Origin: Zootoca vivipara
Lineage: Eukaryota
Reading direction: 5' to 3'
Assembly (NCBI RefSeq): GCF_963506605.1
Contig: NC_083277.1
Location: forward strand, 1,612,001 to 1,676,000
Length of the DNA stretch: 64,000 bases
Both the position numbers and the translations under genes were made by a program. Under the pieces are notes generated by a model, which saw nothing but the letters and a program-made list of their open reading frames with translations, searched no databases and was not told the DNA's origin. Positions 2,721 to 43,895 of this stretch are shown here, in pieces; within the stretch, counting starts at the first letter, position 1; each line of letters opens with the position of its first letter.

Positions 2721-6621
<3,901 letters not shown>

Positions 6622-6645
6622 ATCTTTTCCCATGTGAATAATCAT

Positions 6646-9793: not shown

Positions 9794-10938
9794 TTGATTT
9801 CAGCAAGGCCTTTGACAAGGTGCCCCATGATATTCTTGTAAAGAAGCTGGTAAAATGTGGGCTAGACAATGCTACCATTCAGTGGATTTGTAACTGGCTT
9901 ACTGACCGAATCCAAAGGGTGCTCATCAGTGGCTCCTCCTCATCCTGGAGAGTAGTGACTAGTGGGGTGCCACAGGGTTCTGTCTTGGGCCCAGTCTTGT
10001 TCAACATCTTTATCAATGACTTGGATGATGGGCTTGAGGGCATCCTGAGCAAGTTTGCAGATGACACCAAATTGGGATGGGTGGCTAACACCCCAGAGGA
10101 CAGGATCACACTTCAGAATGACCTTAACAGATTAGACAACTGGGCCAAAGCAAACAAGATGAATTTTAACAAGGAGAAATGTAAAGTACTACACTTGGGC
10201 AAAAAAAATGAAAGGCACAAATACAGGATGGGAGACACCTGGCTTGAGAGCAGTACATGTGAAAAGGATCTAGGAGTCTTGGTAGACCACAAACTTGACA
10301 TGAGTCAGCAGTGTGATGCAGCAGCTAAAAAAGCCAATGCAATTCTGGGCTGCATCAATAGGAGTATAGCATCTAGATCAAGGGAAGTAATAGTACCACT
10401 GTATTCTGCTCTGGTCAGACCTCACCTGGAGTACTGTGTCCAGTTCTGGGCACCACAGTTCAAGAAGGATACTGATAAGCTGGAACGTGTCCAGAAGAGG
10501 GCAACCAAAATGGTCAAAGGCCTGGAAACGATGCCTTATGAGGAACGGCTTAGGGAGCTGGGTATGTTTAGCCTGGAGAAGAGAAGGTTAAGGGGTGATA
10601 TGATAACCATGTTCAAATATATTAAAGGATGTCATATAGAGGAGGGAGAAAGGTTGTTTTCTGCTGCTCCAGAGAAGCGGACACGGAGCAATGGATTCAA
10701 ACTACAAGAAAGAAAATTCCACCTAAACATTAGGAAGAACTTCCTGACAGTAAGAGCTGTTCGGCAGTGGAATTTGCTGCCAAGGAGTGTGGTGGAGTCT
10801 CCTTCTTTGCAGGTCTTTAAGCAGAGGCTTGACAGCCATCTGTCAGGAATGCTTTGATGGTGTTTCCTGCTTGGCAGGGGGTTGGACTGGATGGCCCTTG
10901 TGGTCTCTTCCAACTCTATGATTCTATGATTCTATGAT
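9794..10938 (+). mobile_element. CR1 LINE, 5'-truncated, with open RT
   Basis: [19 protein letters not shown] and KFADD, open to 10857; (ATTCTATG)n tail at about 10915-10938. Confidence 0.95.
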
Positions 10939-12212
10939 CTCTATTCATCCCAGGTGCTTCCATGGTTTTAAGCTTGGTAATGATTTCCAATTCAGCAACT
11001 TCCCTTTCCAGTCTGTTCCTGAAATTTCTCTGTAATAAAACAGCTGCTTTGAGATCTTGTATAGAATGTCCTGGGAGATTGAAGTGTTCTCCTACTGGTT
11101 TTTCAGTCTTATGGTTCCTGATGTCAGATTTATGTCCATTTATCCTTTGGCGTAGGGTTTGGCCTGTTTGTCCAATATAGAGAGCTGAAGGGCACCGTTG
11201 GCATTTGATGGCATACACAATGTTAGAAGATGAGCAATTAAATAGTCCTGAGATGGTATGTTGGATGTTGTTGGGACCAGTAATGATGTTGTCCGGGTGT
11301 ATGTGGCAGCAAAGTTGGCATCTGGGTTTATTGCAGGCTCTGGTACCAGTGCCCATGTTAAGTCTGGTGGTTGTATTATTGTGGGTGAGGAGTTGTTTAA
11401 GATTGGGTGGCTGTCTGTAGGCAATGAAAGGTCTTCCTCCCAGAGCTTGAGAAAGGGAGCTGTCATTGTCCAGGAGAGGCTGTAGATCTCTGATGATGCG
11501 TTGTACTGTTTTAACTTGGGAGCTGTATGTGATGACTAGTGGTGTTCTGTTATTTTCTTTTTTGGGTCTGTCTTGCAGCAGGTTCTCCCTAGGTATCAGT
11601 CTGGCTCTGTTGATCTGTTGTTTAACTTCCTCAGGTGGATATTTTAGTTCTAAAAAGGTTTGCTGTAGATCTCTTAGGTGAGATTCTCTGTCTGTAGAGT
11701 TGGAACAGATACGGTTGTAACGTAGGGCCTGGCTGTATACGATGGATTGTTTGGTATGTTTGGGATGGTAGCTAGAAGCATGTAGATATGTTTGTCGGTC
11801 AGTTGGTTTTCTGTATAAGGTGGTGTCTATACGTCCATCCTGTATTTTTATAGTAGTGTCCAAAAAATGTATTTCTTGCATAGATTGGTTCATTGTTAGG
11901 TTGATGGTGGGGTGAAAGTCATTGAATGTCTGGTGGAAGGTTTCCAGGGTCTGTTGTCCATGTGTCCAGATAATAAAGATATCGTCAATGTATCGTAGGT
12001 ACAAGAGAGGTTTGAGTGGGTAGGAGTCTAGGAAACGATGTTCTAAGTCTGCCATGAAGATGTTGGCATACTGTGGGGCCATGCGGGTGCCCATGGCTGT
12101 GCCGCTGATCTGGAGGAACAGGTCATCACCAAATTTGAAGTGGTTGTGGGTAAGGACAAAGTGGCAGAGTTTGGTAGCAAAGTCCGCTGTGGTTTTATCT
12201 GGGGGGGGGGGG

Positions 12213-14105
12213 TCTGATGGGTGATGGCCCCTCCCAGCAACTCCCTGCCGTCAATGGTTGAGACGTGCAGGGGAAAGTCCAGCTGCAGAAGTTGGATCTG
12301 GTGCGCTTCTGCAAAGTTTCTCGAAAAGAAGTTGGCAGATGCACCCGAGTCGATTAAGGCTAAGACCGTCAGTGGATATCCATTAGGGAGCGTTAGCGTC
12401 ACTTCTAGAACCACCCCTGCTCTGGGGGGGGGGGTGGGCTGGCGCTGCTCCTCGCTGTGCGGGTGGGTGGGCTGGGGCTGTTGTCGGCCGATTGCGCCTG
12501 GCTGCTGCCCCTTGTCTCCTGCAGCCAGGCTGTCTTGTTTCCCTGCTGTGGTGCTGCGTCAGTGGGGGAGGGCACAACCGTTCCTGCCCTCCCTTGCCAT
12601 TCCCTGCGGTGGGGGCAGTTTCTGACGAGATGCTGAGGGGAGTTGCAGAGGAAGCAGTTCCCGCCCCTTCCCTCCTTGCGTCTTGGCGCCGCTGGGGTTT
12701 GAAAAGCCCCCGCGCGCGCGCTATCAATTTGCATGGGTTCCTGGTCTGCCCCGGCCCCAGGCGTGGCCTGGGATGGCTGTAGGGGGAGTGGCTTCTCCTG
12801 CGACCGTGGGAACCAAGGCTGTGTTGCGCGCGTTGTCTGCTTGTCGTTCCACCGAGATTCCTGCCTCACCCCCACCGCCAGAGCCGCTTTACTCAACTCA
12901 TCCATATTATTGGGCTTCGGACCTCTCGAGAGCTCATCCTTCACATCAGGATGCAATCCCAAATAGAACGCAGCTTCCATCGGAGGCGAGTGAAGTTCCC
13001 ACCCCAGCCTGTGCACCAGCATGGTGAATTTAGCCCAATATTCGCGAACTGTCATTTTCCCCTGGCGTAAATTATGAAGTTCCTCTTTGGTATGGTCCAT
13101 ATGACTGTCACTTGCATACATTACTTTTAAAGCTTCTAGAAATAATTTGACATTCTTCATGCAAGGGTTTGTTGCCGCGATTAACGGTCTGAGCCACTCC
13201 CTTGCTGGTCCGGTCAGATGTTCCACTATAAACGCTACTCTGTGCGCATCATCAGGGAACTCATCATTGTGCAGCTCAAGGGCATACAATATCTGTCTCA
13301 AAGCCCTGATATTCCCTTGGGTCCCCGTTGAACTTGCTTACTAGGGTCCCCGCTCTCCTTCCCGGCAGCACTTGGAGTTGCCCCCCCCCCGCCCTTGTTT
13401 TTCTCTGCATCCAACTTGTTTTGGAGCTCCACTGCTAGCGTTCTTAACTGCTGCTCTTTTTCCTGTAGCGATCTCACCTGGTCAAGGAGATTCTGCCTCT
13501 CCTCCTGGCTTTTCCGCGTTTCCTCTTTGGCCGCTTTTAATTCTCCCTGTGCCTGCACCGCCAGTTGCTGCAGCTCCTGCTGGGCTTGCTCCGCGAGCTG
13601 CCGCCATTTCTCCGCCTCTTGCGCGCTCATTCCGGCAACTCCAAAGTAGCCCAAAAAAAGATTCGGAGGTAGCTGTCACAGTGGCCTGGGTGGGCTACTT
13701 CAGAGTAACGACTCCACACAGCTCTGCATTTTATTCTTTTATTGGTGCTGTGTATTTACAGTGCTAAAGGCAGTGCTATTTACAGAGATTGACACATCTT
13801 ATCAGTCTTCTTCAGTACCTCCGAATGGAGATTGGCGCGTTCTCCTCCAGCATAAAAGCTTGGGGAGACCCAGCCTCTTCCCCCTACGTTTCTTGCGCAA
13901 TTCCGGAGTCGGTGGGATTGGCCTTCCCCCCTTGCTCCCCCCTTCCTGTCCCACCTTGGCCAGTGGCTCTGCTACCTTGCCTGAGCCTCGGACACCACTA
14001 CCTGCTTCTCCACTTGAGTCGGAACTCTCCCTGCTTTCCCCAGCGCTCGGAGATGGGCTGGAGCTCAAGATGGGAGGGACCTCCCGATATCCCCTGTCCC
14101 TCACA
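12213..14105 (-). mobile_element. Ty3/gypsy LTR retrotransposon of the sushi/Tf1 group: 5' LTR (13674-14105), gag (ATG 13630, frameshifted) and a truncated protease
   Basis: 432-bp TG...CA LTR with AATAAA. Gag has a coiled coil, a capsid region (LRQGKMTVREY) and a CCHC knuckle CFLCNSPQHLVRNC. Protease motif ALIDSGASANF. The element ends abruptly at a G-run joined to the Penelope element. Confidence 0.92.
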
Positions 14106-15868: not shown

Positions 15869-18800
15869 CTAGAGTTTATCCCCACTGTGAGTTCTTTGAT
15901 GGGAAGTGAATTTGTAGCTGTGACTGAAGCTCTTTCCACATTCCAAGCACTGAAAGTGTTTCTCTCCACTATGAATTCTTTGATGGGAAGTGAGATTATT
16001 CTTCTGACTGAAGCTCTTTCCACATTCCAGGCACTGATAGGGTTTCTCCCCTGTATGAATTCTTTGATGGGAAGTGAGATGGTTGCTCTGACTGAAGTGC
16101 TTTCCACATTCGAAGCACTGATAGGGTTTCTCCCCTGTATGACTTCTTTGATGGGAAATGAGAGAGGCGCTCTGACTGAAGCTCTTTCCACATTCGAAGC
16201 ACTGATAGGGTTTCTCCCCTGTATGAATTATTTGATGGGAAGTGAGATGGGTGCTCTGACTGAAGCTCTTTCCACATTCCAAGCATTGATAGGGTTTCTC
16301 CCCACTATGAATTCTTTGATGGGAAGTGAGAGAGTCGCTTCGACTGAAGGTCTTTCCACATTCCAAGCATTGATAGCGTTTCTCCCCTGTATGTATTGTT
16401 TGATGGGAAGTAAGATTGCTACTCTGACTGAAGGTCTTTCCACATTCTAAGCACTGATAGGGTTTCTCCCCAGTATGACTTCTTTGATGGGAAGTGAGAG
16501 AGTCTCTCCGACTAAAGCTCTTTCCACATTCCAAGCACTTATAGGGTTTCTCCCCTGTATGACTTCTTTGATGGGAAGTGAGAGAGTCTCTCCGACTAAA
16601 GCTCTTTCCACATTCCAAACACTGATAGCATTTCTCTCCTGTATGAATTCTTTGATGGGAAGTGAGATTGCTGCTCTGACTGAAGCTCTTTCCACATTCC
16701 AAGCACTGATAGGGTTTCTCCCCTGTATGAATCCTTTGATGGGAAGTGAGAGAGTCACTCCTTCTAAAGGTCTTTCCACATTCCAAACACTGATAGCATT
16801 TCTCTCCTGTATGAATTCTTTGATGGGAAGTGAGATGGGTGCTCTGGCAGAAGCTCTTTCCACATTCGTAGTATGGATAGGGTTTATTCCCAATGGGATT
16901 TCTTTGATGAGAAGTGGACTGGGACCTCTGACTAAAGTTCTCTTCACATGAGTATTTATATTGCTTCTCCATTGTGTGGATTCTGTCTTGCTCCCATCTG
17001 TTATTAATTTCCATTTCATCCCCACCTGCAATGATAGAACTAATTACAGTGGTACCCTGGTTCTCAAACTTAAACCATTCCAGAATTCTATCCCAAAATC
17101 AAAGCATTCCAAAACCAAGGCACGCTTTCCCATGGCATGGTATGTACAGTGGTACTTTGAGTTACAAACGCCTCAGGTCACAAACACTTCAGGTTACAAA
17201 CTCTGCTAACCTGGAAGTAGTTGCCTCGAGTTGATAACTTTGCCCCAGGATGAGAACAGAAATCATGTGCTGGCAGCGTGGCGGCAGCAGGAGGCCCCAT
17301 TAGCGAAATTGCTCCTCAGCTTAATAACAGTTTCAGGTTAAGAATGGACCTCCGGAACGAATTAAGTTTGTAACTAGAGGTACCACTGTAATGTGAAATG
17401 GATTAATCCGTTCCAGACCATTAAAAACAACCTGTAAAACAACAAATTAACATGAATTTTACTCTGAGACAATTGATCCATAAAATGAAAGCAATAAACC
17501 AGGGTGCAATCGACTACCCAGTATCGAAAACTGGCAGTGATCTACCCATTGCCATTGGAGGGATGAGGTGGAAGGGGAGGAGTTTAAGGGGGGGACTCAA
17601 ACTGGAGGGACAAGGAGCGCACATGGGTGCATGTGGGGAAGGAGGTGGCTAACTGGATGTGGGAGGGGAGTTTAAGTGGGAGGAAGGAAAGGGAGGCAAA
17701 AACTCTCTCCCCCCACCACTCAAGCAAGTCCTTTATCCCCCCCCGCAAAGCAGGTCTCTCGCTTGCTCGCTCGCTCTCCCCTCTCCATGTTTTCTGGCAT
17801 CTGCCCATGCTCCCTGTTCACCCGGGCGAGTCCCAGGGCTTGTCTCCACTTTGGACAGCATGTGCGTCCCTGGTGCGATGGAACAAGGACATGGCAGCAG
17901 CACCAGAGTGTGTAGATGAGGCGGCGGTGGCGGTGGCTGTTCCTGGCTGCTCTCCTACGGTAGCTGCTGGATGCTGAGATGGGTGGGCTGGAGCCTGTGC
18001 ATAGTGCGAGCACCCCGATCCCCCGCTCGGGAATGTGGCACCAGCGATGCTTCGCCTGGATCTCGCCTGGGGTCGGGCTTGGGATGAGGGGAGGGAAGGG
18101 AGGCGAGGGGGTGGGAAGGTCATCCTGCCCAGCATAGTTTTTCCCCCCCACAGGCTCCCCCCACAAACACCGCCTCCCTGCGCGATGGGGGAGAGTCACC
18201 AACTTCCACCTCCCTGCCCACTCTGAAGGATATTCGCAGGCAACACCATGAATAGCCCTTCATTCAAAGTGATTTCTGGAAGCGTTAGATTTCCAGGTGG
18301 TGTAAGTGGCACTAAGGAGAGATGTATGGAATTTCAAAATAGATATTATGATCCAACAGAGAGCTTTACCCAGAGAATCCAGGATCCCATGATTCTCCTC
18401 CATGACCTCCTTATGCAGAGCTCTCTGGTCAGAATCCAGCAATGCCCACTCCTTGTCCGTGAAATGAACAGCGACATCTTCAAAGCACACAGGACCCTAA
18501 AAGACCAAGGGATGATCTACCACACATTGCTCTGTTGTTTTCTGCCTGCTAATTGTTGCATTGCTTTAGGGGGATTGTTTTGCTGCACATGGTATGAATG
18601 CGTATTTTAACATCTCGCTGGAATTACTTTATTATTTTAATGATGGGTCTTAATTTTTGTGTAAATGGGTGGAACTCCACATTGTGTTCTTAAAAGCATT
18701 CCTACCTGATGCCCAAAAGACAATGTCAAGGGGCACATGGGGCACAGGGAGGCGAGGAGAAATGGCAAGGCCGTTGTCCAACTGATGGGGCTGGTTAGAT

Positions 18801-19832
18801 GAATCCTGGCCCATTTTTATGGTTTGTCAAAGTTAAATTTAGAAATAAAACTGCAACTACAGATAAAAAATACTAGTAACATTCAGAAGGCGATATGGGT
18901 GAGGTGGATGTCCCATATTCTCAGTTATATATATATTCTCCATATTTTCATTAACAATTTCAAATGGCATTTCCTACCTTTAGTTCAGGGCACCTTTGAC
19001 AGGAGCCAGGAAGTGGAGGGAGTAACCCTGGTTGCCCACCCCTCAGCCTCTCTCCCTACAAGTCTCCTGCCCCCTACCTGATCTGCTTCCATAGCTGCTG
19101 CTTCCCCTTCGCCACCATGAAAAGACGGATGAGGAGGTATTGTCAGCATCATCCTCTCTCTGGTGTCCATTGGAGTCCTCTCTGCCTCAGAGGAATCAGG
19201 ACCCATTTCTGCTAACAGATCCTTTACCTGAAAGAACAACAAAGATTCAAAGCAGAGAATGGGGAGGAGGATTAGAAAAGGATTTTGCAGAGGCAAACAC
19301 TTAGGGGTATCAGATCTCATTCATTGGCTCCTATACATAAAGGGATGGGACATGAATCCTGCATTTTGGGATACTCTCCCTCTGGTTTGGAGCCCCTTGA
19401 GAAAATCCAGAGGAAAATATATATCACCTGCTGCTCTGCCAGCTTTTTCTCCACTGCCTGACTCAGGAGGAAACCTTCAGCCAGGGCCACTGCCTGGGAA
19501 GTGGTCTCTGCTCCACATTCCCTCACCCAGCTCTCCATCTCGGGTGGAAGGACAGCCAGGAACTGCTCCAAGATCACCAGGTCCAGCATCTCAGCTTTTG
19601 TGTGCCTTTCTGGCTTCAGCCACTGACAGACAAGGTGGTAGAGTCGGCTGCAAACCTCACGGGGTCCTTCAGCCTCCTGGTGGCAGAACTGCCTGAGCTG
19701 CTGGCTCTGCACATCTGAGCGGAGGGTGTCCTCCTCACCCAGGATCTTCCGCACAGAGTTTCCCCCAGTGCTCCCATCTTCAGTGGCCTGGCCTCTTTCT
19801 GCTTTAGGTCCAGCTGAGTCTTGCTCATCCAT
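15869..19832 (-). CDS. SCAN-KRAB C2H2 zinc-finger gene A, 612 aa, 11 intact plus 1 degenerate finger; join(19832-19428,19227-19078,18496-18370,17025-15869)
   Basis: SCAN (GPREVCSRL...[22 protein letters not shown]), a 127-bp KRAB-A exon ([17 protein letters not shown]) and TGEKP-linked fingers. Splice sites are GT-AG and phases are consistent (1839 nt). Confidence 0.9.
17047..17420. mobile_element. Nested mariner/pogo-type MITEs (inner complete copy at 17147-17388)
   Basis: The inner TA-CAGTGGTAC...GTACCACTG-TA copy lies inside an outer element that also starts TA-CAGTGGTAC. Confidence 0.75.
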
Positions 19833-21088
19833 CTTTGCTTTTAGGAAGCTTCCAAGAGATCAGTCCCTTTTTGTCGTCTGCAAAGTTCTTCCTGTCCGAA
19901 TTAGTGCTGGCAAACCCTACAAAGCAAATGCATTGTTCTGTTATAAAATTGGCATTCTGTCAGGATCAGAAAAATGTCCCCAGACAAATGTGGATGACTT
20001 TTGTGAGCAATCAAGGCTGCACTGCACTAAAGCCCAGACTCTGAACATATTGTGATTATGAGTTTTTTCAAGCTGTTTTTAAACTTGATTACAGCACTAC
20101 GCAAGAGAAATAAATACTCCCCGGGGGAAACCCACACACCATTAGAATTTGGCTCAATCTGGCTGGTCTAAATATAATTTTACACATAGTAATACATTAT
20201 TATTACTACTACTACTACTACTACTGTTACTACTATTATGTCGCCCATCTGGGTTGCCCCAGCTACTCTGAGCGGTTTCCATTAAGATGAACATCAAACA
20301 CAGTAAGGCATCAAACATTATTAAAAACATTATTAAAAACATCAACAGAGCAATTATTCTCCTCACTTTGAAACCCCCCCCCTGATTCCATCAATAGACC
20401 AACACTTTATGCTGTTTCATTGGTAGCAGAAGAGGAAAAATGATTCTTACACTTAATCTCAGCACAACCACAAGGGCTCCTGACTAGGCGTTTGGCTATG
20501 GGATGTGGACTGCTAAACCTGTCTTCACCCAACTTGGGGCACAAACCCATGACCAGGAAACTCAAGAGTCTCACTCTTTGCTGGCTGGCTTACCGGTATT
20601 TGCATCATTTATTGTTCCCTTTATCCTTGTTTACACAGCCCTAATAAGAGTTATTCCGAACAGAAAGCAAAAAGACAAGAACACACACCCAAGCGCCACC
20701 TATGCTGCATCTGCAAAGCAGGATCAGGCCACTTTAAAGAGTCCTGGCTTCCTCCAAAGAATCATGGGACTAGTAGTTTGTTGAGGGTGCAGGCAAAGCT
20801 CACTGATTTGGGGGTCTCTGCCCCTCTCATGCACCTTCCTCATGCAGCCCTGGATCCCCCCAGGCATCCCAAGGAGGAAGAAAGAGGAGATGCTGCGGAT
20901 CCCAGAAGGGGCCCATAGGCATCTCTGGCAAAGGAGAGACGAAAGCAACCCCTCCATTCTAGGAGACCTCCCCCTCTCCCCTTTCTGCCCTCCCCTCTCT
21001 AGGAATCCAGCTTAGTTCCTTTTAATCCTTGGCGAACCGAACGCACCCACTTCCCCCCTCTATGGAGAGCAGGAGCCCACAGAGAGAG

Positions 21089-21331: not shown

Positions 21332-21855
21332 AGAAAAAGAGAGGCTTTCTTCTGGGGATGGTGGGATCCACTTGGCAGGCAGATGAGATAAGATAAGATA
21401 TATTTATTGTCATTCTCCCCTTTCGGTTGCTACATCCACTCAGATAAAGCATTCTGCATAATCCAAAATTACTACGAAACCTAATTAAAACAGTAAATAC
21501 GATACAAAATAACAGGTAAAGTAAGATGACTTCAAAGTCCAGACTTTCCATTTGAGGCCAAAATCGCTCTAGAGAAGAAACTGTTCCAGAGACGGATAGT
21601 TCTTGCCTGCATTGAGGAGGAAGGCTATGCCTTAAGGAAAGGATGGCTTGATGGGGGCTCTTCCCTCGGACGGGGATTGGGAGGGGGGTGTTCAATGGCA
21701 TGCCACTTTTTCCCTCCCCAAAGGGGCAAAGGAAGATCAGAGAGGAAGGGGGAAGATACTCCCTGCTTTGGGAGTCTTCCCCCCCCCTTGGGCATCCTCC
21801 CCCTGCAGCCCTGGGACCCCACTTCGCCCCAGGGGGGAAGAGAGAGGAGACTCAC

Positions 21856-22200
21856 TGGATCCTAGGAGGGGGCACCGAGGCAGCCTTGGCAGAGGACAAA
21901 GGGGGAGGGGCTTCCTCTCTGGAGGACCTAGGACCCCCCACTTCCTGGCCTCTCTAGGATTCCAGCTCAGCTCTTGTTAACCCTTGCCGAACCGAGCGCA
22001 CACAGGTCAGAGGAGACTCTGAGGACCTGCGCTGGGTCTTCTCTCGCGGACGCCTCAGAGCACGAAGCGGGGGAGGCGGAGGGAGGGCGGGGCAAGGACC
22101 CGTGACGAAACAGCCTTGGCCCCGCCCCTCAGCCGACTGCTCTGAGGGAAACTACTTTTCCCAACTTCCCGCCTTTCGAAACCTGAGCCTCGCCTCAGTT
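21856..22200 (-). promoter_or_regulatory. CpG-rich promoter and putative non-coding exon 1 of ZNF gene A
   Basis: GC boxes at about 22086 and 22119 and a GTGAGT donor at 21855. Paralogous to 31235-31620. Confidence 0.55.
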
Positions 22201-22383
22201 TTAGGCGCCAAGGAGGCCGATTGCTGTCAGACCAGGCTGCAGTTTCCCTGGGCTCCCTCATTTATCGGGGGATTTCTTTTCATTTGCACTGATTTCTGTT
22301 CATATCTCTCGCTTTTGTAGTTTCTCTCTGCTTCTTTAGAAAGGCATTTTGCTGTATTTTAAATACCCTTTCACTACGCTTTG

Positions 22384-22506
22384 CTTCCCTCGGTTTATGG
22401 ATAAATAGAAGAGCTCCTGCCAGTCAAAGATGTACCTGTACAGGTAGTGAACCCGCTGCATCCCGTTGGAGAAGTGGCACTCCTGCTTCATCCGATACAG
22501 GATGTG
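22384..22506 (-). pseudogene. MHC class II beta chain exon 2 (beta-1) fragment, copy 1
   Basis: Translates as HILYRMKQECHFSNGMQRVHYLYRYIFDWQELFYLSINRGK, matching the class II beta pattern ECHFxNGTxRVRxLxRYxYxxEE. Confidence 0.85.
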
Positions 22507-22509
22507 TTA

Positions 22510-23075
22510 TCAAATCCAACTCGGTGGTGTAACGTTGCAAAATGTCGATCACTTCTCCTACTTGGGCCAACATTGAGGCCAAAATCCAGCATCGCCTGAG
22601 CTCTGCGAGTGCGGCTTTCTCCCAATTGAAGGGTCATTGGCAGGGAAACCAAAATAATAATAATAATAATACCGGGTAATAATAATAATAATAATTTATT
22701 ATTTATGCCCCGCCCATTTGGCTGGGTTTCCCCAGCCACTCTGGGCGGCTTCCAACAGAAATATTAAAATACACTAATTTCTTAAAGATTAAAAGCTTCC
22801 CTAAACAGGGCTGCCTTCAGATGTCCTCTAAAAGTCTGGTAGTTGTTTTTCTCTTTGACATCTGGTGGGAGGGTGTTCCACAGGGCGGGTGCCACTACCG
22901 AGAAGGCCCTCTGCCTGGTTCCCTGTAGCTTTGCTTCTCACAGTGAGGGAACCGCCAGAAGGCCCTCGGCACTGGACCTTACTGAAATAAGTAAAATGGT
23001 TGTTTACAAAGCTATTGCACTACCAACCTTACTGTATGCTTGTGAAACATGGACCACTTACAAATACCATCTCCA
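22510..23075. mobile_element. RTE fragments (+) interrupted by an L2 3' fragment (-, about 22690-22980)
   Basis: VYKAIALPTLLYACETWT is RTE-type. The L2 3' sequence is shared with 53200-53450 and 58200-58420. Confidence 0.65.
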
Positions 23076-23959
23076 AGTTCCCTCCCCCCCACCCCAAATC
23101 CTGCCCTCCCTTCCCAGCTACCCTGTTTGCAGATTCAGGGATAGGGAAAGCGCAATCTTCTCCCCCTCCCCACAACCCCAAAATAATAATAATATTTTGC
23201 ACCTTTTTTTCCTCCTCCTCTGCAGACATGCTCCTTTTCTGGGAATGTGGATGGAGGCCCCTCCCCCTCCAACCTCCCCCCCCCTAACCTTCCCGCCTCT
23301 CTAGGAAGCGGAGCTCACTGACCCATGGGGAGGAATGAGTGACGCCTCCCTTCCAGAACACACAAATTCTCCTCCTTCCAAACAAGCTCTGTTAACCTGT
23401 TTCTTTCCTGAGAAGGTCCCAGGTTTGATCCCCGGAGACGGCACGGAAAGAGACCCCCCCCAAAAAAAAACCTCCGAAAAATTCCTCCGGGGCACAAAGA
23501 TTACATTCCCCCTTCTTCACTTTTTTAATCTATTGCAAGGAGGGGGGGAGGGGGATCTGGTCAATTTCACACCCATTTCCCAACGTGGGGGAGGCAGGGC
23601 TGTGGCGTAAGGTGTCCCCGTTACAACAGCCCTACAAAGTAGACCAGAATTGTTATGCGCGTTTGGGACTTGGAACAGTGACTTACAGCAACCCTAAAGG
23701 GTAGTCCAGTGTCGTCATTACGGGTGCCTTTTTAAAATAGGGGCTGGTGTTTGAACTTGGGCTTTGCTAATGTTACTAAATTGGTGGGGGGTGCACTTGT
23801 GCGAGAGCAGGTTTCTTTGACTGTCTGCCCGTTCAGTGGTTGCCCCTTCTGCTTTCTCATGGCAAAGGACGGTGAGCCCAGAAAGCCTTTTCTTTCCCAG
23901 CTGCACAAGCCCAACACACTTTCGTAATAAACAGAAACCCTGTCTCTTTGTCTCCATGT

Positions 23960-24240
23960 ATGCAAACTCTTTGTCCACCAAATCTAAATCCTTGAACCTG
24001 TTCCTCACTTCCACTGTGTATTTATAAGGAATTTGATTTAGATTTGCAATATTTTTATTTACAGCATTGGACTTTCCTTTCACTTCCAGGGACATCTGCA
24101 ACTGAGTGACATTTCGGCTTTGGCCCAGCCGCTTCATCAGCTCTGACTCTACTTGTACTTGTCCTCCGCTCTTCCTCAGTAGCATGTTGAACGCCTTCCG
24201 ACCTGAGGGGCTCATCTTCCAGATCTTCCAGCCTCATAAC
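23960..24240 (-). mobile_element. BovB/RTE internal fragments
   Basis: NLNQIPYKYTVEVRNRFKDLDLVD and EDEPLRSEGVQHATEEE on the minus strand. Confidence 0.7.
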
Positions 24241-24261
24241 TTATATCCCTGTTGTTTTTGT

Positions 24262-24414
24262 CCACAGGTAGCCAATGTCCCACCTTTCGACGTGGGACCC
24301 ATCCTCTGGGGACATGGCCACAAACTTCCCTCTGTGAATGGTGAAATGGAAGAGCTCCCACCAGTCAAAGAAATACCTGTACAGGTAGTGAACCTGGTAC
24401 ATCCCGTTGGAGAA
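24262..24414 (-). pseudogene. MHC class II beta exon 2 fragment, copy 2
   Basis: FSNGMYQVHYLYRYFFDWWELFHFTIHRGKFVAMSPEDGSHVERWDIGYLW; homologous to copies 1 and 3. Confidence 0.8.
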
Positions 24415-24637
24415 GGGTGTTGTCTGTTGTGCTAGCATGGAGGAGCACACAGCCTCCATGTTCTGATCAGTGTGTCTTCTCCATTTTGTATGTTTCTGTG
24501 TGTTTGGAGAAGTGACTGCTTAGTCACAGTCACTTGGGACTAACTTTTTTATGGAATAGTTCTAGTTGTTATGTAACCTAAGCCTGCCTTCAGGGATGTC
24601 TGTGAACCTGTATGAATCTGTGAGTAAACTACTTTTA

Positions 24638-24840
24638 CAGTGAGGGGGAAAAGAACTTGATCCCCTGCTAAATTTGCCTGTTTGCCCTCTGACGAAGAAA
24701 CAACCAGTCCATAATTTTAATGGTAGGTTTATTGTAGCTGTGAGAGACAGAATAACAGGGGAAAACCCCAGAAACCCAGAATACAAAAGTCAGAGATTGA
24801 TGTGCATTATAATGAGTGAAATAAGTATTTGATCCCCTAT
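24638..24840 (+). mobile_element. Tc1-like IR/DR terminal repeat (one end only)
   Basis: Starts TA-CAGTG, with the direct repeat TTGATCCCCT at both ends of about 200 bp. Confidence 0.55.
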
Positions 24841-25501
24841 CGTTAGGGAAGGATATCATTAAATAATATATCCTCTCCTGCTTCCCTAATCATCCCCACA
24901 TACAACAGGTGCAAGGTCACTCTGAAGAATGTTCTACACATGCGCTGCTTCTGGGCTAACCAGAGATGTTTCCTACAATAGGAGTCTAACCTCTCCTATT
25001 GTAGTGTTAAGATGTAAAGAGAAGATATGGCAGCTTTTAGGGTTAGCATTATGTGAAGATTTGGAAAGAAATTTTAAAAGATCTAGAAATATTGATAAGA
25101 ATGAAAGTATAATTGATGGGGAAAATCTCGGCAATAAAAATGAATATAATGATAAAAAATAATTTTTAATAAAATTTATATCCCACCCGTCTGTTTGGGT
25201 TTCCTCAGCCATGTTAAATTGTTGTTTTACGGGTTGTTTTTAAAAGCCTGGAACGGATCCCAGGGGTCAGCAAGGCTTACCAGGCATGGGCTGGTCACTC
25301 CCGTGGAGATCACTCCGTGGGCTCGACCGGCACAGCGCATCACTGGAAATCATTTATGTGCATGTCCGTGGTGCCAAACATGCGCAGAAGCGATTTTCAG
25401 CATATGGGTATACACATAAGCGATTTCTGGAGCCACGGAAGAGAGTTATCGCACCGTGCTGCATGTGCCGAGTGGGCAGCTCGGTTCGGGAGCGGCTCAT
25501 G

Positions 25502-25730
25502 GGAAGAAGAAGAAGAAGAAGAAGAAGAAGAGGAGGAGGAGGAGGAGGAGGAGGAGGAGGAGGAGGAGGAGTTTGGACTTGATATCCCACTTTATCACTA
25601 CCCTAAGGAATCTCAAAGCGGCTAACATTCTCTTTTCCCTTCCTCCCACACAACAAACACTCTGTGAGGTGAGTGAGGCTGAGAGACTTCAGAGAAGTGT
25701 GACTGGCCCAATGTCACCCAGCAGCTGCAT
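25502..25730 (-). mobile_element. 5'-truncated Squam3-like SINE with an expanded (GAA)n(GAG)n tail
   Basis: The body matches 21095-21255; the microsatellite spans 25502-25570. Confidence 0.8.
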
Positions 25731-26131
25731 TACTTTCTATTGGAAAGCACGCCTTGGTTTTAGAACGCTTTGGTTTTGGAACAGACTTCCAGAACAGATT
25801 AAGTTTGGGATCCAAGGTACTACTCTACAAACCAATAACAACAACCACAACAATAATAAACAGTTTACATTAATACCCTAATTAAAGTAACCATCAGCAC
25901 CATCTAAAAACATTTAAACAACACCAACCTGACAAAATCAAAACAGATAAACCAAAATTAGAACTGTGTAAAATATTTTAGCCAGAGCAATGCTCTCCCA
26001 TGTCTAGTTTCATATGAAGGGGGAAGAAACCCAGAATAAAACATTAGATTGTTTTTTATAGGAATGACAGAAGCACAATAACACTGCTACAATACAAATT
26101 AAAATCTCCTAAAATTACTACACAGCAATTG

Positions 26132-28813
<2,682 letters not shown>

Positions 28814-28960
28814 CTGTGCTCTCAGGAAGCCTCCGAGAGATCAGAAGGAGTCCCTTTTTTCTTCTGCAAAGTTCTGCTAGTCCAAATTAGAGCTGCTGGC
28901 AAACCCTAAAAAGCAAATGCATAAAACCTTGAGATAAACACAGAGGCTTCAGAAAAGGGG

Positions 28961-29046
28961 TGCGGGAGGCAGTGGAAGACAGGAGTGCCTGGCGTGCTCT
29001 GGTCCATGGGGTCACGAAGAGTCGGACACGACTAAACAACAACAAA
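28961..29046 (+). mobile_element. BovB 3'-end fragment
   Basis: Nearly identical to 1440-1530 and flanked by a duplication of about 37 bp. Confidence 0.85.
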
Positions 29047-29347
29047 TCAAGCGTGCAAAAAGAAAAAACCTTGAGATACAACACAGAGCCTTCAGAAAGG
29101 GGGTAGGGAAATTTGAAGTCTCTCCACCCACCCACCCCCCAACAGCTTGAGATTTTGTTACAACTGAGCACTCATACATTGCAGCATCATGAGGAAAAAA
29201 ATAAAGACTCCAGAAAACACACACACACACACTATCAGCATTTGTCTCAGTCTGGCTAGTCTAAATTTAAATTTAAGCAGAAGTTATTATCTCTGCTTAG
29301 AAACCCACTTGCATATAGTAATTGTATTAAATTATTATTCTTACTAA

Positions 29348-29697
29348 GGGACGCGGGTGACGCTGTGTTCTAAACCACAGAGCCTAGGGCTTGCTGATCA
29401 AAAGGTTGGGAGTTCGAATCCCTGTGATGGGGTGAGCTCCTGTTGCTCGGTCCCAGCTCCGGCCAACCTAGCAGTTCAAAAGCATGCCAGTGCAAGTAGA
29501 TAAATAGGTACAGCTCTGGCGGGAAGGTAAACAGTGTTTCTATGCATTACTCTGGTTCGCCAGAAGCATCTTAGTCATGCTGGTCACATGATCCGGAAGC
29601 TGTCGGTAGACAAACCCTCAGCCTATAGAGCGAGATTAGCGTGAAACCCCAGAGTTGTCCGCAACTGGACCTAACTGTCAGGGGTACCTTTACCTTT
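29348..29697 (+). mobile_element. Sauria SINE, full length
   Basis: GGGACGCGGGTG head, ACCTTT tail and TSD TTATTATTCTTACTA. Confidence 0.92.
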
Positions 29698-29889
29698 ATT
29701 ATTCTTACTACTGCTGCTGCTGCTATTATGCTGCCCATCTGACTGAGTTGCCCCAGCTACTCTGAGTGGCTTCTAACAAAATGAACATCAAACACAGTAA
29801 GGCATCAACAGAGCAATTATACTCCTAGCTTTGAATCTCACCCCCCAAGTTCATCAACAGACCAACACTATATGTTGTTTCATTTACTT

Positions 29890-30170
29890 GAAAGAGAAGT
29901 TGCTGAATTACAACTTATTACTAAACTTAAAACTATGGAGAGACCTGGTCTGAATAGAGACATTGGATTCTTATCCCAGTACACATGCTAAGCTATTTTT
30001 GGCCATCTGCATCCCTTGCTTTTTCCCGTAAGACCAATTGCAGTTGTTAATCATCAACAGGTTTACCACACCTATCAGCCAATCACCCATTCCATCTCCC
30101 CTTCTGATAAATACCCCTCCCCACCCTCTCACTATATCTAAGGATCTGGTGACTTCTGTTTCAATGTATC
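29890..30170 (+). mobile_element. Penelope 3' fragment (ORF end plus partial pLTR)
   Basis: EREVAELQLITKLKTMERPGLNRDIGFLSQY; it stops at GTATC just before the hammerhead core. Confidence 0.8.
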
Positions 30171-30539
30171 CCATTTCATCTTTTTCTGTTTAAGCCAATT
30201 CACGAACCTAGAACTCAATACAGTGACCACTCATAATGAAACATATGTCACAGATACCTTGCAAATTTATTGTGACATTATGTGATATATATAAGACGGG
30301 AGAGGATTTACAATCGGAGAACCATCAAATGGGAAGAGACCCTGAGGACCATTTAGTCCAGCCCCCTGCGATGCAGGAATCTTCACCCAACTTGAGGCAC
30401 AAACCCATCACCAGGAGATTAAGAGTTATTCCAAAAGAAAGGAAAAAGAGAAGAACACACACCCCGGCTGCATCTGCAAAGCAGGATGAGGCCACTTTAA
30501 AGAGTCCTGGCTTCCTTCAAACTAATCATGGGAATCATA

Positions 30540-30654
30540 GTTACAGGTACGTAGCCGTGGAGTCGAAACAAAATAAAAAAATTCCTTCAGTAGCACCTTA
30601 AAGACCAACTAAGTTTTTATTTTGGTATGAGCTTTCGTGTGCATGCACACTTCT
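30540..30654 (-). mobile_element. Penelope pLTR fragment with an incomplete hammerhead
   Basis: Matches 9461-9582 but lacks the CUGA core. Empty site in the paralog at about 42676. Confidence 0.8.
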
Positions 30655-31234
30655 AGTTTGTTGAGGGCGCAGGGAAAGCTTCCTGATTTGGGGGTCTCTG
30701 CCCCCCTCATGCACCTTCATCCTACAGCCCTGGGACCTCCCTTCTCTGCAAGGCACCTCAAGGGGGGAAGAGAGAGGAGACTCTGTGGACCCCAGAAGGG
30801 GCACATAGGCAGCTCTGGCTAAGGAGAGAAGAAAGCAACCCCTCCCCTTTCAAGGACGGAGGGTCGTTGGCTTCGGGGGACCTGGCCCACTTTCTGCCCT
30901 CACCTCTCTAGGAATCCATCTTAGTTCCTTTGAGCCCTTGTGGGACAGAGCGCACCCAGTTCCTCCTTTTATGGAGAGCAGGAGCCCACAGACAGAGGCT
31001 TCCTTCTGGGGAGGGTGGGACCCCCTTGGCAGGCAGAGAGGAGGAGCAGCAGTTTGTAGGGGAAAAGGCTGTGCCAGATGCAAAGGAGGGTCTGGTGGGA
31101 AGAACAGAGAGGAAGGGGGAGGATGTTCCCTGCCTTGGGGGTCTTCCCCCCCTTGGGCACCCTCTCCCTGGCGCCCTGGGGACCCCCCCACTTCTCCCCA
31201 AGGCGCCCCAAGGGGGAAGAGCGAGGAGACTCAC

Positions 31235-31620
31235 TGGATCCTAGGAGGGGGCACCGAGGCAGCCTGGGCGGAGGACAAAGGGGGAGGGGCTTCTGCTCTG
31301 GAGGACCTAGGACCCCCCCCCTTCCTGGCCTCTCTAGGATTCCTGCTCGGTTCTTGTTAACCCTTGCCGAGCCGAGCGCACACAGGTCAGAGGAGACTGA
31401 GGAGCTGCGCATGCTCCCTGCGGGCGACGCTGGGTCTTCTCTCGCAGACGCCTCAGAGCACGAAGCGGGGAAAGGGGGAGGCGGAGGGAGGGCGGGGCAA
31501 GGACCCGTGACTAAACAGCCCTGGCCCCGCCCCTCAGCCGGCTGCTGTGAGGGAAACGACTTTTCCCGCCTTTTCCCAACTGCCCGCCTTTCGAAACCTG
31601 AGCCTCGCCTCAGTTTTAGG
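31235..31620 (-). promoter_or_regulatory. CpG-rich promoter and putative non-coding exon 1 of ZNF gene B
   Basis: Paralogous to the gene A promoter, with GC boxes and GCGCATGC at about 31406. Confidence 0.55.
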
Positions 31621-32002
31621 TGCCAAGGAGGCCGATTCCTGTCAGACCAGGCTGCAGTTTCCCTGGGCTCCCTCATTTATCGGGGGATTTCTTCTCATTT
31701 GCACTGATTTCTGTTCATATCTCTCGCTTTTGTAGCTTCTCTCTGCTTCTTTAGAAAGCCATATAAACAACCCTCTCCCCACTGCCTGCGGGATAATCAT
31801 CATAATAATAATAATGTTATACCCCACGCATCTGGCTGGGTTTTCCCAGCCACTCTGGGCGGCTTCCAACAGAATATTAAAATACAATAATATATTAAAC
31901 ATTAAAAGCTTCCCTAAACAGGGCTGCCTTCAGATGTCTTCTAAAAGTCTGGTAGTTGTTTTTCTCTCTGACATCTGGCAAAGGGGGAGAGACATTTGAC
32001 AT

Positions 32003-32159
32003 AAAGGTAAAGGGACCCCTGACCGTTAGGTTCAGTCGCGGATGACTCTGGGGTTGTGATGCTCATCTCACTCTATAGGACCGAGCAACGGGAGCTCACC
32101 CCGTCGTGGGGATTTGAACCACCGACCTCCTGATCTGCAAGCCCTAGGCTCTGTGGTTC
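32003..32159 (-). mobile_element. Internally deleted Sauria SINE
   Basis: AAAGGTAAAGGGACCCC tail fused to the head region. Confidence 0.75.
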
Positions 32160-32291
32160 ATTTATTCCAATTCGAAATAGTCCTTTATAGTGTCACCCTC
32201 CTCTCTCTCCTCCTTTTCCGCTGCCACTGAGGAGAATGGAAGAGGCTTATCTGCCTCGGGTCGCACGTGTGTCTGCGTGTGAGAGAGAAAC

Positions 32292-32515
32292 TGGGTGGAA
32301 GAAGGGCCCAAGGATCCTGTAGAAGCCCCACAGGTAGCCCTTGTCCCACTTTTGGACATGGGGCTGCTCCTCTGGAGACATGGCAACAAACTTCCCTCAG
32401 TTGATGGAGAAATAGAAGAGCTCCTGCCAGTCAAAGATGTACCTGTACAGGTAGTGAACCCACTGCACCCCGCTGGAGAAGTTGCACTCCTGCTTCATCT
32501 GGTACAGGACATATT
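32292..32515 (-). pseudogene. MHC class II beta exon 2 fragment, copy 3, with an intron-1 remnant
   Basis: VLYQMKQECNFSSGVQWVHYLYRYIFDWQELFYFSIN*GKFVAMSPEEQPHVQKWDKGYLWGFYRILGPFF. It has a CGA>TGA stop at 32397-32399, and its upstream pyrimidine tract ends in a dead acceptor CAT (32518-32516). Confidence 0.85.
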
Positions 32516-33419
32516 ATGCGGGGGGCAGGGGTGTGTCAAAGGTCAGGTGGGGGAGGGAAACACCAGGGGGGGCAGGCATACCCCCTGCTCCCTCCTGCCA
32601 AAGGAGCCCCCCCTACCATGTGGCAGGACCTCATCTGCCCCCCACCCCAGCTAAGCATCAACAGTCCCATCATGCAGGGTTGCCACCTGCCCTGTTTAAT
32701 ATGTTGGATATGATTCCTTTATTCACAGAAACAACGCTGTGTAAAGTTTCCAGAAGATCTGTTATTTACAACAGGTGCAAGGTGACTTCGAAGAATGTTC
32801 CACACATGCGCTGCTTCGGGGTTGACCAAAGAGATGTTTAGTCTGACCTCCGCTATTGTCGTGTGAAGATGTAAAGAGTGGGTATGGCAGCTTTTAGGGC
32901 TAACATCATGCAAAGAGTGGGAAGGAAAATTTAAAAGATCTAGAAATATTGAAAAGAATGAAACTATCATTGATGGGGAGAATCTCGGCAATAAAAATGA
33001 ATATAATGATAATATTTTATTTCATTTTTTAAATTAAGATCCCTCCCGTTTGGCTCGGTATCCACAGCCACTCTGTTTGGCTTATATATAAAAACAGAGC
33101 ATAACATCAAACAGTAAAAAAAAAAATCCTATCAAAACAGAGGAACCAAAATTAGAACTGTGTAAAACATTTTAGCAAGTTGCCCCAATAAAATAGTTGT
33201 TCCAGCCATGTCCCCTTGGCCTCCCAGGAGCCCTTTAGTTGTTTGGGGTGAGTGTGGGCTGCACCCCCTAGGCCAGGTGGAAATGGGCCTTACAGCAGGG
33301 AGCGGTCTTCCTTCCAGCACTCAGGGCAGCAGCATTGCCCCTCCAGCCTCCCAGGAGCCTTTTAGCTGTTCAGGGTGAGTGTGGGCTCCGCATTTCCAGA
33401 TTTAGAATCATATTCTGAA

Positions 33420-36169: not shown

Positions 36170-41741
<5,572 letters not shown>

Positions 41742-42059
41742 CTGTGCTCTCAGGAAGCTCCCAAGAGATCAGAAGCAGTCCCTTTTTTCGTCTGCAAAGT
41801 TCTTCCTGTCCAAATTAGAGGTGCTGGCAAATCATACAAAGCAAATGAATTGTTCAGTTATAAAAATGTCCCCAGACAAATGTGGATGACTTTTGCTAGC
41901 AATCCCAGACTCTGAACTTATTGTGGTTGTAAGTTGTTTTAATCTGTTTTTAAACTTGATTACAGCTCCGCAAGAGAGCGGCTTCCAGTAAGATGAACAT
42001 CAAAAACAGTAAGGCATCAAACATTAAAAACGTTTCTGCATCAATAGAGAAATTATTCT

Positions 42060-42485
42060 CCTAGCTGGGTCTCTCAGTGGCTTTTGACACCATCGACCCC
42101 AACATCCTTCTGGACAGTCTAGAGCAGTGTTTCCCAACCTTGTGCCTCCAGATGTTTTGAGACTACAATTCCCATCATCCCTAGCTAGCAAGACCAGTGG
42201 TCAGGAATTATGGGAATTGTAGTCTGAAAACAGCTGGAGGCACAAGGTTGGGAAACACTGGTCTAGAGGGGTTGGGAGCTGGGGGCACTGTTATACAGTG
42301 GTTCCGCTCCTTCCTCCTGGGCCGTGTTCAGAAAGTGGTGGTGGGGGATGAGTGTTCAGACCCCTGGGCTCTCACTTGTGGGGTGCCTCAGGGTTCCATA
42401 GTCTCCCTCATGCTTTTCAACATCTATATGAAGCCGCTGGGAGAGAACATCAGGGGGTTTGGGCTGGGTGTTCATCAATATGTCC
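42060..42485 (+). mobile_element. L2 RT fragment
   Basis: AFDTID and WFRSFL...CGVPQGS...LFNIYM. Confidence 0.8.
42125..42260. mobile_element. 136-bp palindromic hAT MITE
   Basis: TIR CAGTGTTTCCCAACCTTGTGCCTCCAG and 8-bp TSD GTCTAGAG. Confidence 0.92.
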
Positions 42486-43299
42486 AGCCCCCTGCAATTG
42501 CAGGACTCTTCACCCAACTTGGGGCACAAACCCATGATCAGGAGATTACGAGGTATTCCAAAAGAAAGGAAAAAGAGAAGAACATCTCTTTCCCCCCCCC
42601 CCAGCTGCATCTGCAAAGCAGGATGAGGCCACTTTAAAGAGTCCTGGCTTCCTTCAAACTAATCATGGGAATCATAGTTTGTTGTGGGCGCAGGGAAAGC
42701 TTCCTGATTTGGGGGTCTCTGCCCCCCTCATGCACCTTCATCCTACAGCCCTGGGACCTCCCTTCTCTGCAAGGCACCTCAAGGGGGGAAGAGAGAGGAG
42801 ACTCTGTGGACCCCAGAAGTGGCACATAGGCAGCTCTGGCAAAGGAGGGACGAAAGCAAACCCCCCCTTTCAAGGATGGAAGGTCTTTGGCTCTGGGGGA
42901 CCTGGCCCACTTTCTGCCCTCCTCTCTCTAGGAATCCATCTTAGTTCCTTTGAGCCCTTGGGGAACAGAGCGCACCCAGTTCCTCCTTTTATGGAGAGCA
43001 GGAGCCCACAGACAGAGGCTTCCTTCTGGGGAGGGTGGGACCCCCTTGGCAGGCAGAGAGAGGAGCAGCAGTTTGTAGGGGGAAAGGCTGTGCCAGAAGC
43101 AAAGGAAGGCCTGCTGGGGGGTGTTCAATGGCATGTCACTTTTTCCCTCCCCAAAGGGGCAAAGGAAGATCAGAGAGGAAGGGGGGGGTGTTCCCTGCCT
43201 TGGGGGTCTCCCCCCCCCCTTGGGAACCCTCCCCCTGCAGCCCTGGGACCCCCACTTCTCCCCCAGGCGCCCCACGGGGAAAGAGAGAGGAGACTCACT

Positions 43300-43895
43300 G
43301 GATCCTAGGAGGGGGCACCGAGGCAGCCTTGGCAGAGGACAAAGGGGGAGGGGCTTCCTCTCTGGAGGACTTTCTGGCCTCTCTAGGATTCCAGTTCGCC
43401 TCCTTTTCCTGCCTGTCTCCTTCTGCGCCTGCGCCCTAACCCTCTTGGATGAGGGCGGTCTTTTACTCCTAGAGGGTCGACGTCACTGACGCGAGAGGTC
43501 AGCAGGAAGCCCCGCCTCCTCCGGTCCCTCAATCTAATGGCTCGCGGGGACGTCATGCCGGAAGGGGACCTCGAACTTCGCCTCCCCTGTGAGCTGAGGG
43601 GAAAGGAAAAGGGGGGAAAGGGAGATGGGGGAGGGAGGGGGAGCCCCTAAGCGCAGGCGCAAAACAGGAAAAGGCAGGCAGGGAGAGGGAGGGAGGGAGG
43701 GAGGGGCGGGCTCGGTGCCCTCGGATTGCCAAGAGTTAAAAGGAGCAGAGGTGGATTCCTAGAAAGGACAGGAAGTGAAGTGAAGTGGGGGGGGGTCAAG
43801 TTCCTGCATGCAAAATTCCCTCCCTCCCCATCCCTTCCTGCTGTCAGAGAGGAGGTTGCTTTCTTCTCTCTCCTTTGTAAAAGCTTCCTCGGTGA
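43300..43895. promoter_or_regulatory. Bidirectional promoter and putative first exons of gene C (-) and gene D (+)
   Basis: CpG core at 43470-43580 with CRE-like GACGTCA/TGACG, ETS GGAAG and a GC box. GTGAGT donors face outward (about 43298 on -, 43892 on +). Confidence 0.6.

Follow-up and report, generated by a model that had tools for sequence, protein, structure and literature searches.

HLA-DRB9, as described in the relevant sections of PMC11610599 and PMC12674619, consists of a single exon 2 flanked by introns, the remainder of the gene being absent. [quoted passage not shown] Here, we describe a locus of the lizard Zootoca vivipara with features of each: a stretch of 64,000 nucleotides (the window; C2:1612001-1676000 of the 1.44-Gb genome) in which three minus-strand relics of the IIB peptide-binding exon, exon 2, stand upstream of SCAN-KRAB zinc-finger (ZNF) genes. 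We suggest, with a probability of about 0.87, that the relics are three decayed copies of one solitary IIB exon 2, which was likely stranded upstream of a ZNF promoter, and that they are likely non-functional passengers of local tandem duplications; the same figure covers our prediction that they have neither a product nor a role. The three copies are as follows.

22384..22510, minus strand: copy 1, 41 codons from the 5' end of IIB exon 2, together with the final two bases (AT) of a dead acceptor; it ends after the RGK motif and its frame is open (Pfam 27.2 bits; 90.5% identity to copy 3).
24262..24415, minus strand: copy 2, the middle of IIB exon 2, without the first 12 codons (and so the first Cys) and without the 3' third, followed by the 5' fragment of a long interspersed nuclear element (LINE) (83.1% identity to copy 3).
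32296..32533, minus strand: copy 3, nearly the whole of IIB exon 2 with ~15-20 nt of intron 1, a CAT acceptor, a TGA codon, deletions of 6 and 33 nt, and no donor site (Pfam 28.7-29.7 bits).

Three full-length IIB genes (IIB1, IIB2, and IIB3, at 1.03, 1.07, and 1.90 Mb) lie on the same contig, and the window is therefore inside the class II region; the distance from the relics to IIB3 is 255 kb, and that to IIB2 and IIB1 is 560-600 kb. An intact exon 2 of this contig agrees at 100% with a protein of Zootoca vivipara. An initial annotation, made from the letters of the window, had placed three exon-2-like segments at these sites; they are present and translate as it described. Copies 1 and 3 score above the curated cut-off of PF00969 (MHC_II_beta, 20.9 bits), with 27.2 bits (E 4.6e-6) and, when the stop is read as X, 29.7 bits (E 7.6e-7), respectively. 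Copy 2, at 19.5 bits (E 0.0011), falls slightly below it and is homologous by DNA: a DNA profile built with copy 2 among its members gives it 151.6 bits, and its peptide is 52% identical to intact IIB1 over 46 aa (E 9e-11). Copy 3 gives 232.8 bits with nhmmer, and its best PDB matches are class II beta chains. By these comparisons, all three copies are MHC class II beta exon 2 (beta-1 domain) sequence. Between copies, the DNA identity is 90.5% over 127 nt (1/3), 83.1% over 154 nt (2/3), and 85.7% over 91 nt (1/2), and the run of about 50 identical nucleotides previously remarked on in copies 1 and 3 proves to be 52 nt long. Identity of the relics to the three intact exons is 71-81% at the DNA level, and their peptides are 35-66% identical to intact lacertid IIB proteins (P0001-P0023 and P0030-P0046 in our set).

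The relics are dead, with the acceptor lost, a stop, truncations, and CpG decay. In copy 3, the pyrimidine tract ends in CAT (32518-32516) versus CAG in the intact genes, and a TGA stands at 32399-32397, where the intact genes and copy 1 have CGA; alignment bears out the initial annotation on both lesions. The change of the acceptor from AG to AT is common to copies 1 and 3, and since the dead-acceptor bases are found in copy 1 too, the lesion is likely older than the duplication that separated the two. The second beta-1 Cys has gone from copy 3 with the 33-nt deletion and the first Cys from copy 2. The observed/expected (o/e) ratio of CpG in exon 2 is 0.94-0.97 in the intact genes, where this exon forms a CpG island, versus 0.52 in copy 1, 0.33 in copy 2, and 0.09 in copy 3; of 16 CpG sites held by at least two of the three intact genes, copy 3 keeps one and has TG or CA at nine. 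None of the relics has a linked leader, beta-2, or transmembrane (TM) exon, and none combines an intact acceptor and donor, or an open frame, with both beta-1 Cys. As had been noted, exons of these three kinds are absent from the window; in the wider region that we analysed (C2:802001-2066000, 1.264 Mb) there are three of each, all within the full-length genes.

Copy 3 aligns to IIB1 across the acceptor as far as window position 32531, so a short intron remnant is preserved. We rejected a processed pseudogene on account of this remnant and because no exon 1 or exon 3 sequence adjoins the copy. A chimeric retro-transcript was considered for copy 1, whose 5' flank matched two sites 1.2 kb apart, but this flank is a high-copy repeat. 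The relics are best read as genomic fragments and not as retrocopies, in agreement with the initial annotation.

The relics belong to two duplicated units, whose other parts, with those of a sister unit, are listed here.

15872..19859, minus strand: coding region of ZNF gene A, a SCAN exon and a C2H2 array of 11-12 fingers (Pfam SCAN, 118 bits; zf-C2H2).
21731..22347, minus strand: ZNF gene A, putative promoter and non-coding first exon (86.8% identity to 31098-31762; GC 0.63, CpG o/e 0.53).
22511..22631, minus strand: dispersed repeat fragment in place of the intron upstream of copy 1 (40 scored, at 80-91%, of 1538 genome-wide candidates).
24901..25211, minus strand: flank X of unit A, an old dispersed-repeat fragment at the same position in the units of copies 2 and 3 (81% identity to 32767-33070).
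26135..28840, minus strand: coding region of ZNF gene B, with SCAN, two small exons, KRAB, and nine C2H2 fingers (Pfam SCAN, KRAB, zf-C2H2; splice sites).
31098..31762, minus strand: ZNF gene B, putative promoter and non-coding first exon (GC 0.65, CpG o/e 0.57; almost no RNA reads).
32767..33070, minus strand: flank X of unit B (best genome match 84%, to flank X of unit A; other copies mostly 71-75% over the core).
36173..43398, minus strand: ZNF gene C, a sister unit that lacks both a relic and the promoter's 5' part (SCAN; homology to unit B stops at 43398).

Read along the minus strand, unit A leads from flank X through unique DNA to copy 2, then over LINE pieces and a repeat fragment to copy 1, which is followed 37 bp further on by the promoter and gene A; unit B runs from flank X through unique DNA, copy 3, and two repeats to the promoter and SCAN-KRAB-ZNF gene B. 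On its 3' side, copy 2 is flanked by sequence that is 87-89% identical to a repeat. When the unique stretches upstream of copies 2 and 3 were compared, they gave a homology score below that of shuffled sequence, and a repeat (R) considered as a landmark common to both units was discarded, having closer matches elsewhere (98% and 95% versus 94%). Copies 1 and 3 had been placed just upstream of the A and B promoters. This holds for copy 1, which is 37 bp from the region of promoter homology; the corresponding gap for copy 3 is ~530 bp and contains two repeats. Both promoters are predicted from sequence, their start site not being seen in reads. A paralogue of this promoter/exon-1 family is also present at C2:1023626-1023941, ~3 kb from the TM exon of IIB1, which it faces in the opposite orientation, and downstream of a SCAN-ZNF gene.

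The initial annotation proposed that a composite of IIB relic and ZNF gene had been tandemly expanded. The co-duplication of relics with the SCAN-KRAB-ZNF units A and B is supported; its extent was overstated. Genome-wide searches with DNA, Pfam, and the Podarcis protein P0027 (described below), in which only the best candidates were scored and the Pfam search missed copy 2, gave nothing beyond the three relics and three intact exons. The nhmmer DNA profile recovered the same six sequences from the 1.26 Mb, the next match having E 5.2. A relic accompanies only 2 of the 53 ZNF arrays in this region, and none was found upstream of unit C or of four further paralogues of the same promoter. Because only three relics were found, and unit C and the four promoter paralogues are relic-free, the amplicon is limited to two of several dozen units. 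Comparison of the paralogues shows no higher conservation for the relics than for the neighbouring repeat or promoter DNA: in BLAST alignments, copies 2 and 3 are 83% identical versus 81-84% for flank X, and copies 1 and 3 are 90.5% identical versus 87-92% for the promoter and 92% for SCAN. Together with the lesions, this supports one of the two roles that had been offered for the isolated exons, that of passengers.

What the initial annotation missed is the age of the element. A search of 1.84 billion representative proteins with copy 2 gave three matches, the best of which, P0027, is a 70-aa Podarcis lilfordi model that forms a single-member cluster and bears a predicted name only (class II beta chain-like). 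It shares with the relics an acquired start ATG, a two-codon deletion, and the diagnostic residues W, M, H, Q, and K. In a tree of 38 rows (LG+C20+F+G4), P0027 and the relics lie on one side of a branch with support 96/87, and the three Zootoca copies group together with 100/92. Given this grouping and the shared marks, the fragment is older than the Zootoca/Podarcis split; the triplication is likely later than the split. For scale, the older Lacertini/Eremiadini split is put at 40-43 million years ago (PMC2719621, in the part that gives dates). The accession of P0027 falls between those of intact IIB models of the same contig, which is consistent with synteny but no proof of it. In a second species, contigs span copy 3 together with the flank upstream of it, differing at 19 letters and by 22 gaps over 269 nt. 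They have 37 letters versus the window's four at 32320-32323, which by eye restores 11 codons, including the DGFCW motif of P0027; as the second species does not have the 33-nt gap, this deletion is specific to the Zootoca vivipara lineage. A beta-1-only model from Rhineura floridana, P0029, is placed beside the relic clade (87/88, unstarred) and does not have the two-codon deletion; its position could be due to long branches and to CpG decay in parallel. We note that P0029 and P0002 (Podarcis lilfordi) are both gene models with a beta-1 and without a beta-2 domain.

We propose that a rearrangement, in a region where class II alpha (IIA) and IIB genes interleave with dozens of ZNF genes, most likely stripped one IIB gene to its exon 2; the promoter paralogue beside IIB1 provides a context for such an event. 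The fragment then gained the two-codon deletion, CpG-type changes, and the internal ATG, all of which are common to the Podarcis copy, so that it predates the split. From the identities, an older duplication would have separated copy 2 from the ancestor of copies 1 and 3 (83-86%) and a younger one would have given units A and B (copies 1 and 3, 90.5%), with deletions and repeat insertions presumably leaving two relics before gene A. Each copy was afterwards broken in a manner of its own.

RNA reads were taken from three Zootoca vivipara runs, tissue unstated, at ~7.5 million reads each (~6% of each run), with a read threshold of 85%, which should admit copy 1 reads as well. Copy 3 is covered by 0-2 reads, with depths of 0, 0.45, and 0 over 32275-32481 and 0, 0, and 1.42 over 32482-32688. 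This result is weak because exon 1 of gene B itself is almost uncovered, and there is no IIB positive control. The SCAN and KRAB bins reach depths of 35-185 and, because they contain many other letters, their reads come mostly from paralogues.

Several observations weigh against non-functional passengers, or against details of the history that we propose. The ratio of non-synonymous to synonymous change (dN/dS) between relics is 0.55-0.76, below 1, without a formal test and with tiny counts (11-23 differences per pair; synonymous/non-synonymous 3/8, 5/18, and 3/10). All exon-internal deletions (6 and 33 nt) keep the frame. At 52 nt, the identical stretch common to copies 1 and 3 exceeds the length expected from random placement (p 0.016; 0.07 without CpG-context mismatches), and it could reflect conversion between these copies or chance. 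P0027 is open over its 70 aa and keeps both Cys, the order of duplications is based on pairwise identities alone, and the blank in the RNA carries little weight at ~6% per run, with exon 1 of gene B silent too and copies 1 and 2 compared with the reads only indirectly.

The other role offered by the initial annotation was that of a donor pool, in which the isolated exon-2 copies would be a source of short gene-conversion tracts for functional IIB genes. The relics are indeed in the same chromosome region as IIB genes, 255 kb from IIB3, the fragment is the peptide-binding exon, and three other residues of the relics, located at variable positions, are seen again in 2-3 of 30 intact lacertid beta-1 sequences. 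We nevertheless detected no exchange with the intact genes. The identity of 71-81% is low, the longest exact stretch shared with an intact gene (22 nt) falls in a motif also common among intact genes, and, in the one assembly, all nine relic-gene pairs are without a conversion tract (longest agreement run at polymorphic sites 1-3; permutation p 0.29-1.0). Nine relic-diagnostic residues and the two-codon deletion occur in none of the 30 sequences (4 from Zootoca; some are near-duplicates; of the proteins fetched, 12 were left out, 10 of them being duplicates and two, P0025 and P0030, unusable). A donor array of the chicken immunoglobulin pseudo-V type has many donors of high identity near the target, and donor tracts are seen in the functional alleles; here there are three copies, at 71-81% identity and at least 255 kb away, and no tract in nine of nine pairs. 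We regard a donor role as scarcely credible. Co-opted regulatory DNA, with the relic as part of the upstream control region of genes A and B, has somewhat more in its favour: copy 1 abuts the ancestral promoter-upstream sequence at 37 bp, copies 1 and 3 share the 52-nt tract, and a second species keeps a relic upstream of the same promoter family (on separate contigs). On the other hand, unit C and four other promoter paralogues do without the relic, conservation is no better than that of the flanking repeats, copy 2 and the Podarcis protein depart from the 52-nt tract, and two repeats intervene between copy 3 and the promoter in unit B; co-option is thus very unlikely.

Of course, the open frame in Podarcis also raises the idea of a distinct, possibly still-coding non-classical IIB lineage, broken in Zootoca and elsewhere giving a short beta-1-only protein from the internal ATG. 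The 70-aa P. lilfordi model has both Cys, the second species keeps the second-Cys segment in frame, and the Rhineura model sits beside the relic clade. However, P0027 is a single predicted model, the Zootoca and Podarcis copies are only 57-69% identical, low for a constrained protein, the diagnostic changes fall at otherwise invariant residues, and the two residues that Rhineura shares may stem from CpG decay. A word search for proteins sharing three 5-mers with copy 3 found no other member at 42-135 or 136-2000 aa, although this search is insensitive and missed P0027 as well. We consider such a lineage a shade less credible than regulatory use. An artefact of assembly, or of collapsed or duplicated contigs, deserves hardly any weight: the region is repetitive, but the copies differ by 10-17%, their flanks are distinct, there is no N in the 1.26 Mb, and copy 3 with its flank appears in the contigs of another species. 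The boldest view would make the element a lizard counterpart of DRB9, kept at a KRAB-ZNF promoter across lacertids and perhaps since the amphisbaenian split, through regulatory co-option or, in Podarcis, through a 70-aa two-Cys beta-1 mini-protein from the acquired ATG; we hold this to be improbable. The decayed passenger therefore remains our preferred explanation: ordinary MHC debris, an old fragment most likely carried along.

The setting of the relics is a large zinc-finger cluster. C2H2 arrays with three or more fingers number 53 in the 1.264 Mb, some being portions of the same split gene, and the gene-B query gave 12 SCAN exons. Within the window, the SCAN, KRAB, C2H2, and RPS18 (Ribosomal_S13) identities are from Pfam matches. 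The exons of RPS18, next to which the cluster had been placed, are ~16 kb from copy 1.

3972..6640, plus strand: RPS18 exons, which mark the class II region (Ribosomal_S13 matched by Pfam at 5416-5511 and 6187-6276; no match for the exon at 3972-4061).

Nested open frames on the minus strand of the window (10919-13675) presumably represent a GIY-YIG retroelement and a gag-like protein with a protease motif. Elsewhere in the region, the class II genes themselves lie within the cluster of ~50 C2H2 arrays (C2:802001-2066000); in the main text of an Anolis MHC paper, the terms zinc, ZNF, and RPS18 do not occur (PMC9679377). Full class II alpha-type Ig exons are found at C2 1.055, 1.081, and 1.894 Mb, the last being the nearest to the relics at ~250 kb, and a partial one at C2:1040816-1040953 is possibly a further MHC fragment. 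The beta-2 exon of IIB3 (C2:1904376-1904660, L048) has a TGA in this assembly where P0012, with the same exon 2, has W; it may be a null allele or an assembly error, which leaves two of the three IIB genes reading through. Directly 3' of the IIB2 TM exon is a full-length open LINE frame of 1036 aa (C2:1066278-1069385), which we take to be RTE-like. At C2:1.414-1.421 Mb (L006:9234-9515 and L006:2383-2607), a DMB-like exon, whose top five PDB matches are DM beta, is next to a class II Ig exon with mixed PDB matches that may be DMA; Anolis DMA is reported on chromosome 4 (PMC9679377, in the section on this gene).

The importance of the locus is modest. It is a dated case of birth-and-death debris from the squamate MHC, of which descriptions are poor, and it shows the lacertid class II genes to be embedded in a large ZNF cluster, the duplications of which can take MHC fragments with them. 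Such relics could be counted as alleles or genes when exon 2 is genotyped or when annotation is based on homology, and the Podarcis copy already bears the annotation of a class II beta chain-like protein. A donor role, if true, would have provided a testable source of MHC polymorphism; the tests give it no support.

No description of this lacertid element was found in the literature covered, with subscription papers and supplements outside its scope, and the parts of PMC5496512 and PMC11472244 seen hold nothing on this locus. The source family of the relics is that of the intact lacertid IIB genes, which have the full exon set, a CpG-rich exon 2, both Cys, and intact splice sites. Like the chicken MHC-Y fragments, the relics were duplicated together with KRAB-ZNF genes; unlike them, they are not in blocks that also hold class I genes, lectin genes, and full-length IIB loci, and the sections of PMC9635633 that describe ZNFY mention KRAB but no SCAN and do not describe the fragments as consisting of exon 2 alone. 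The tuatara and crocodile MHC likewise contain IIB genes that are partial or broken, but these mostly keep other exons, and the relevant parts of PMC4502378 and PMC4263668 describe no repeated exon-2-only unit at a ZNF promoter. The closest likeness is to HLA-DRB9 and Mamu-DRB9, each a IIB pseudogene reduced to a lone exon 2, old, common to species, and of unproven function in the accounts that treat them (PMC11610599; PMC12674619). The relics are of this kind, which is not an orthology group, in consisting of exon 2 alone, in the short intron remnant of copy 3, and in being shared between species. DRB9, according to the same accounts, keeps its flanking introns and stands beside DRA, whereas the relics retain ~15-20 nt of intron 1, have their nearest alpha exon ~250 kb off, and are found as three copies by ZNF promoters. 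Their origin is independent of HLA-DRB9, of which they are not orthologues, and the lizard locus is thus a separate instance of a IIB gene reduced to its exon 2.

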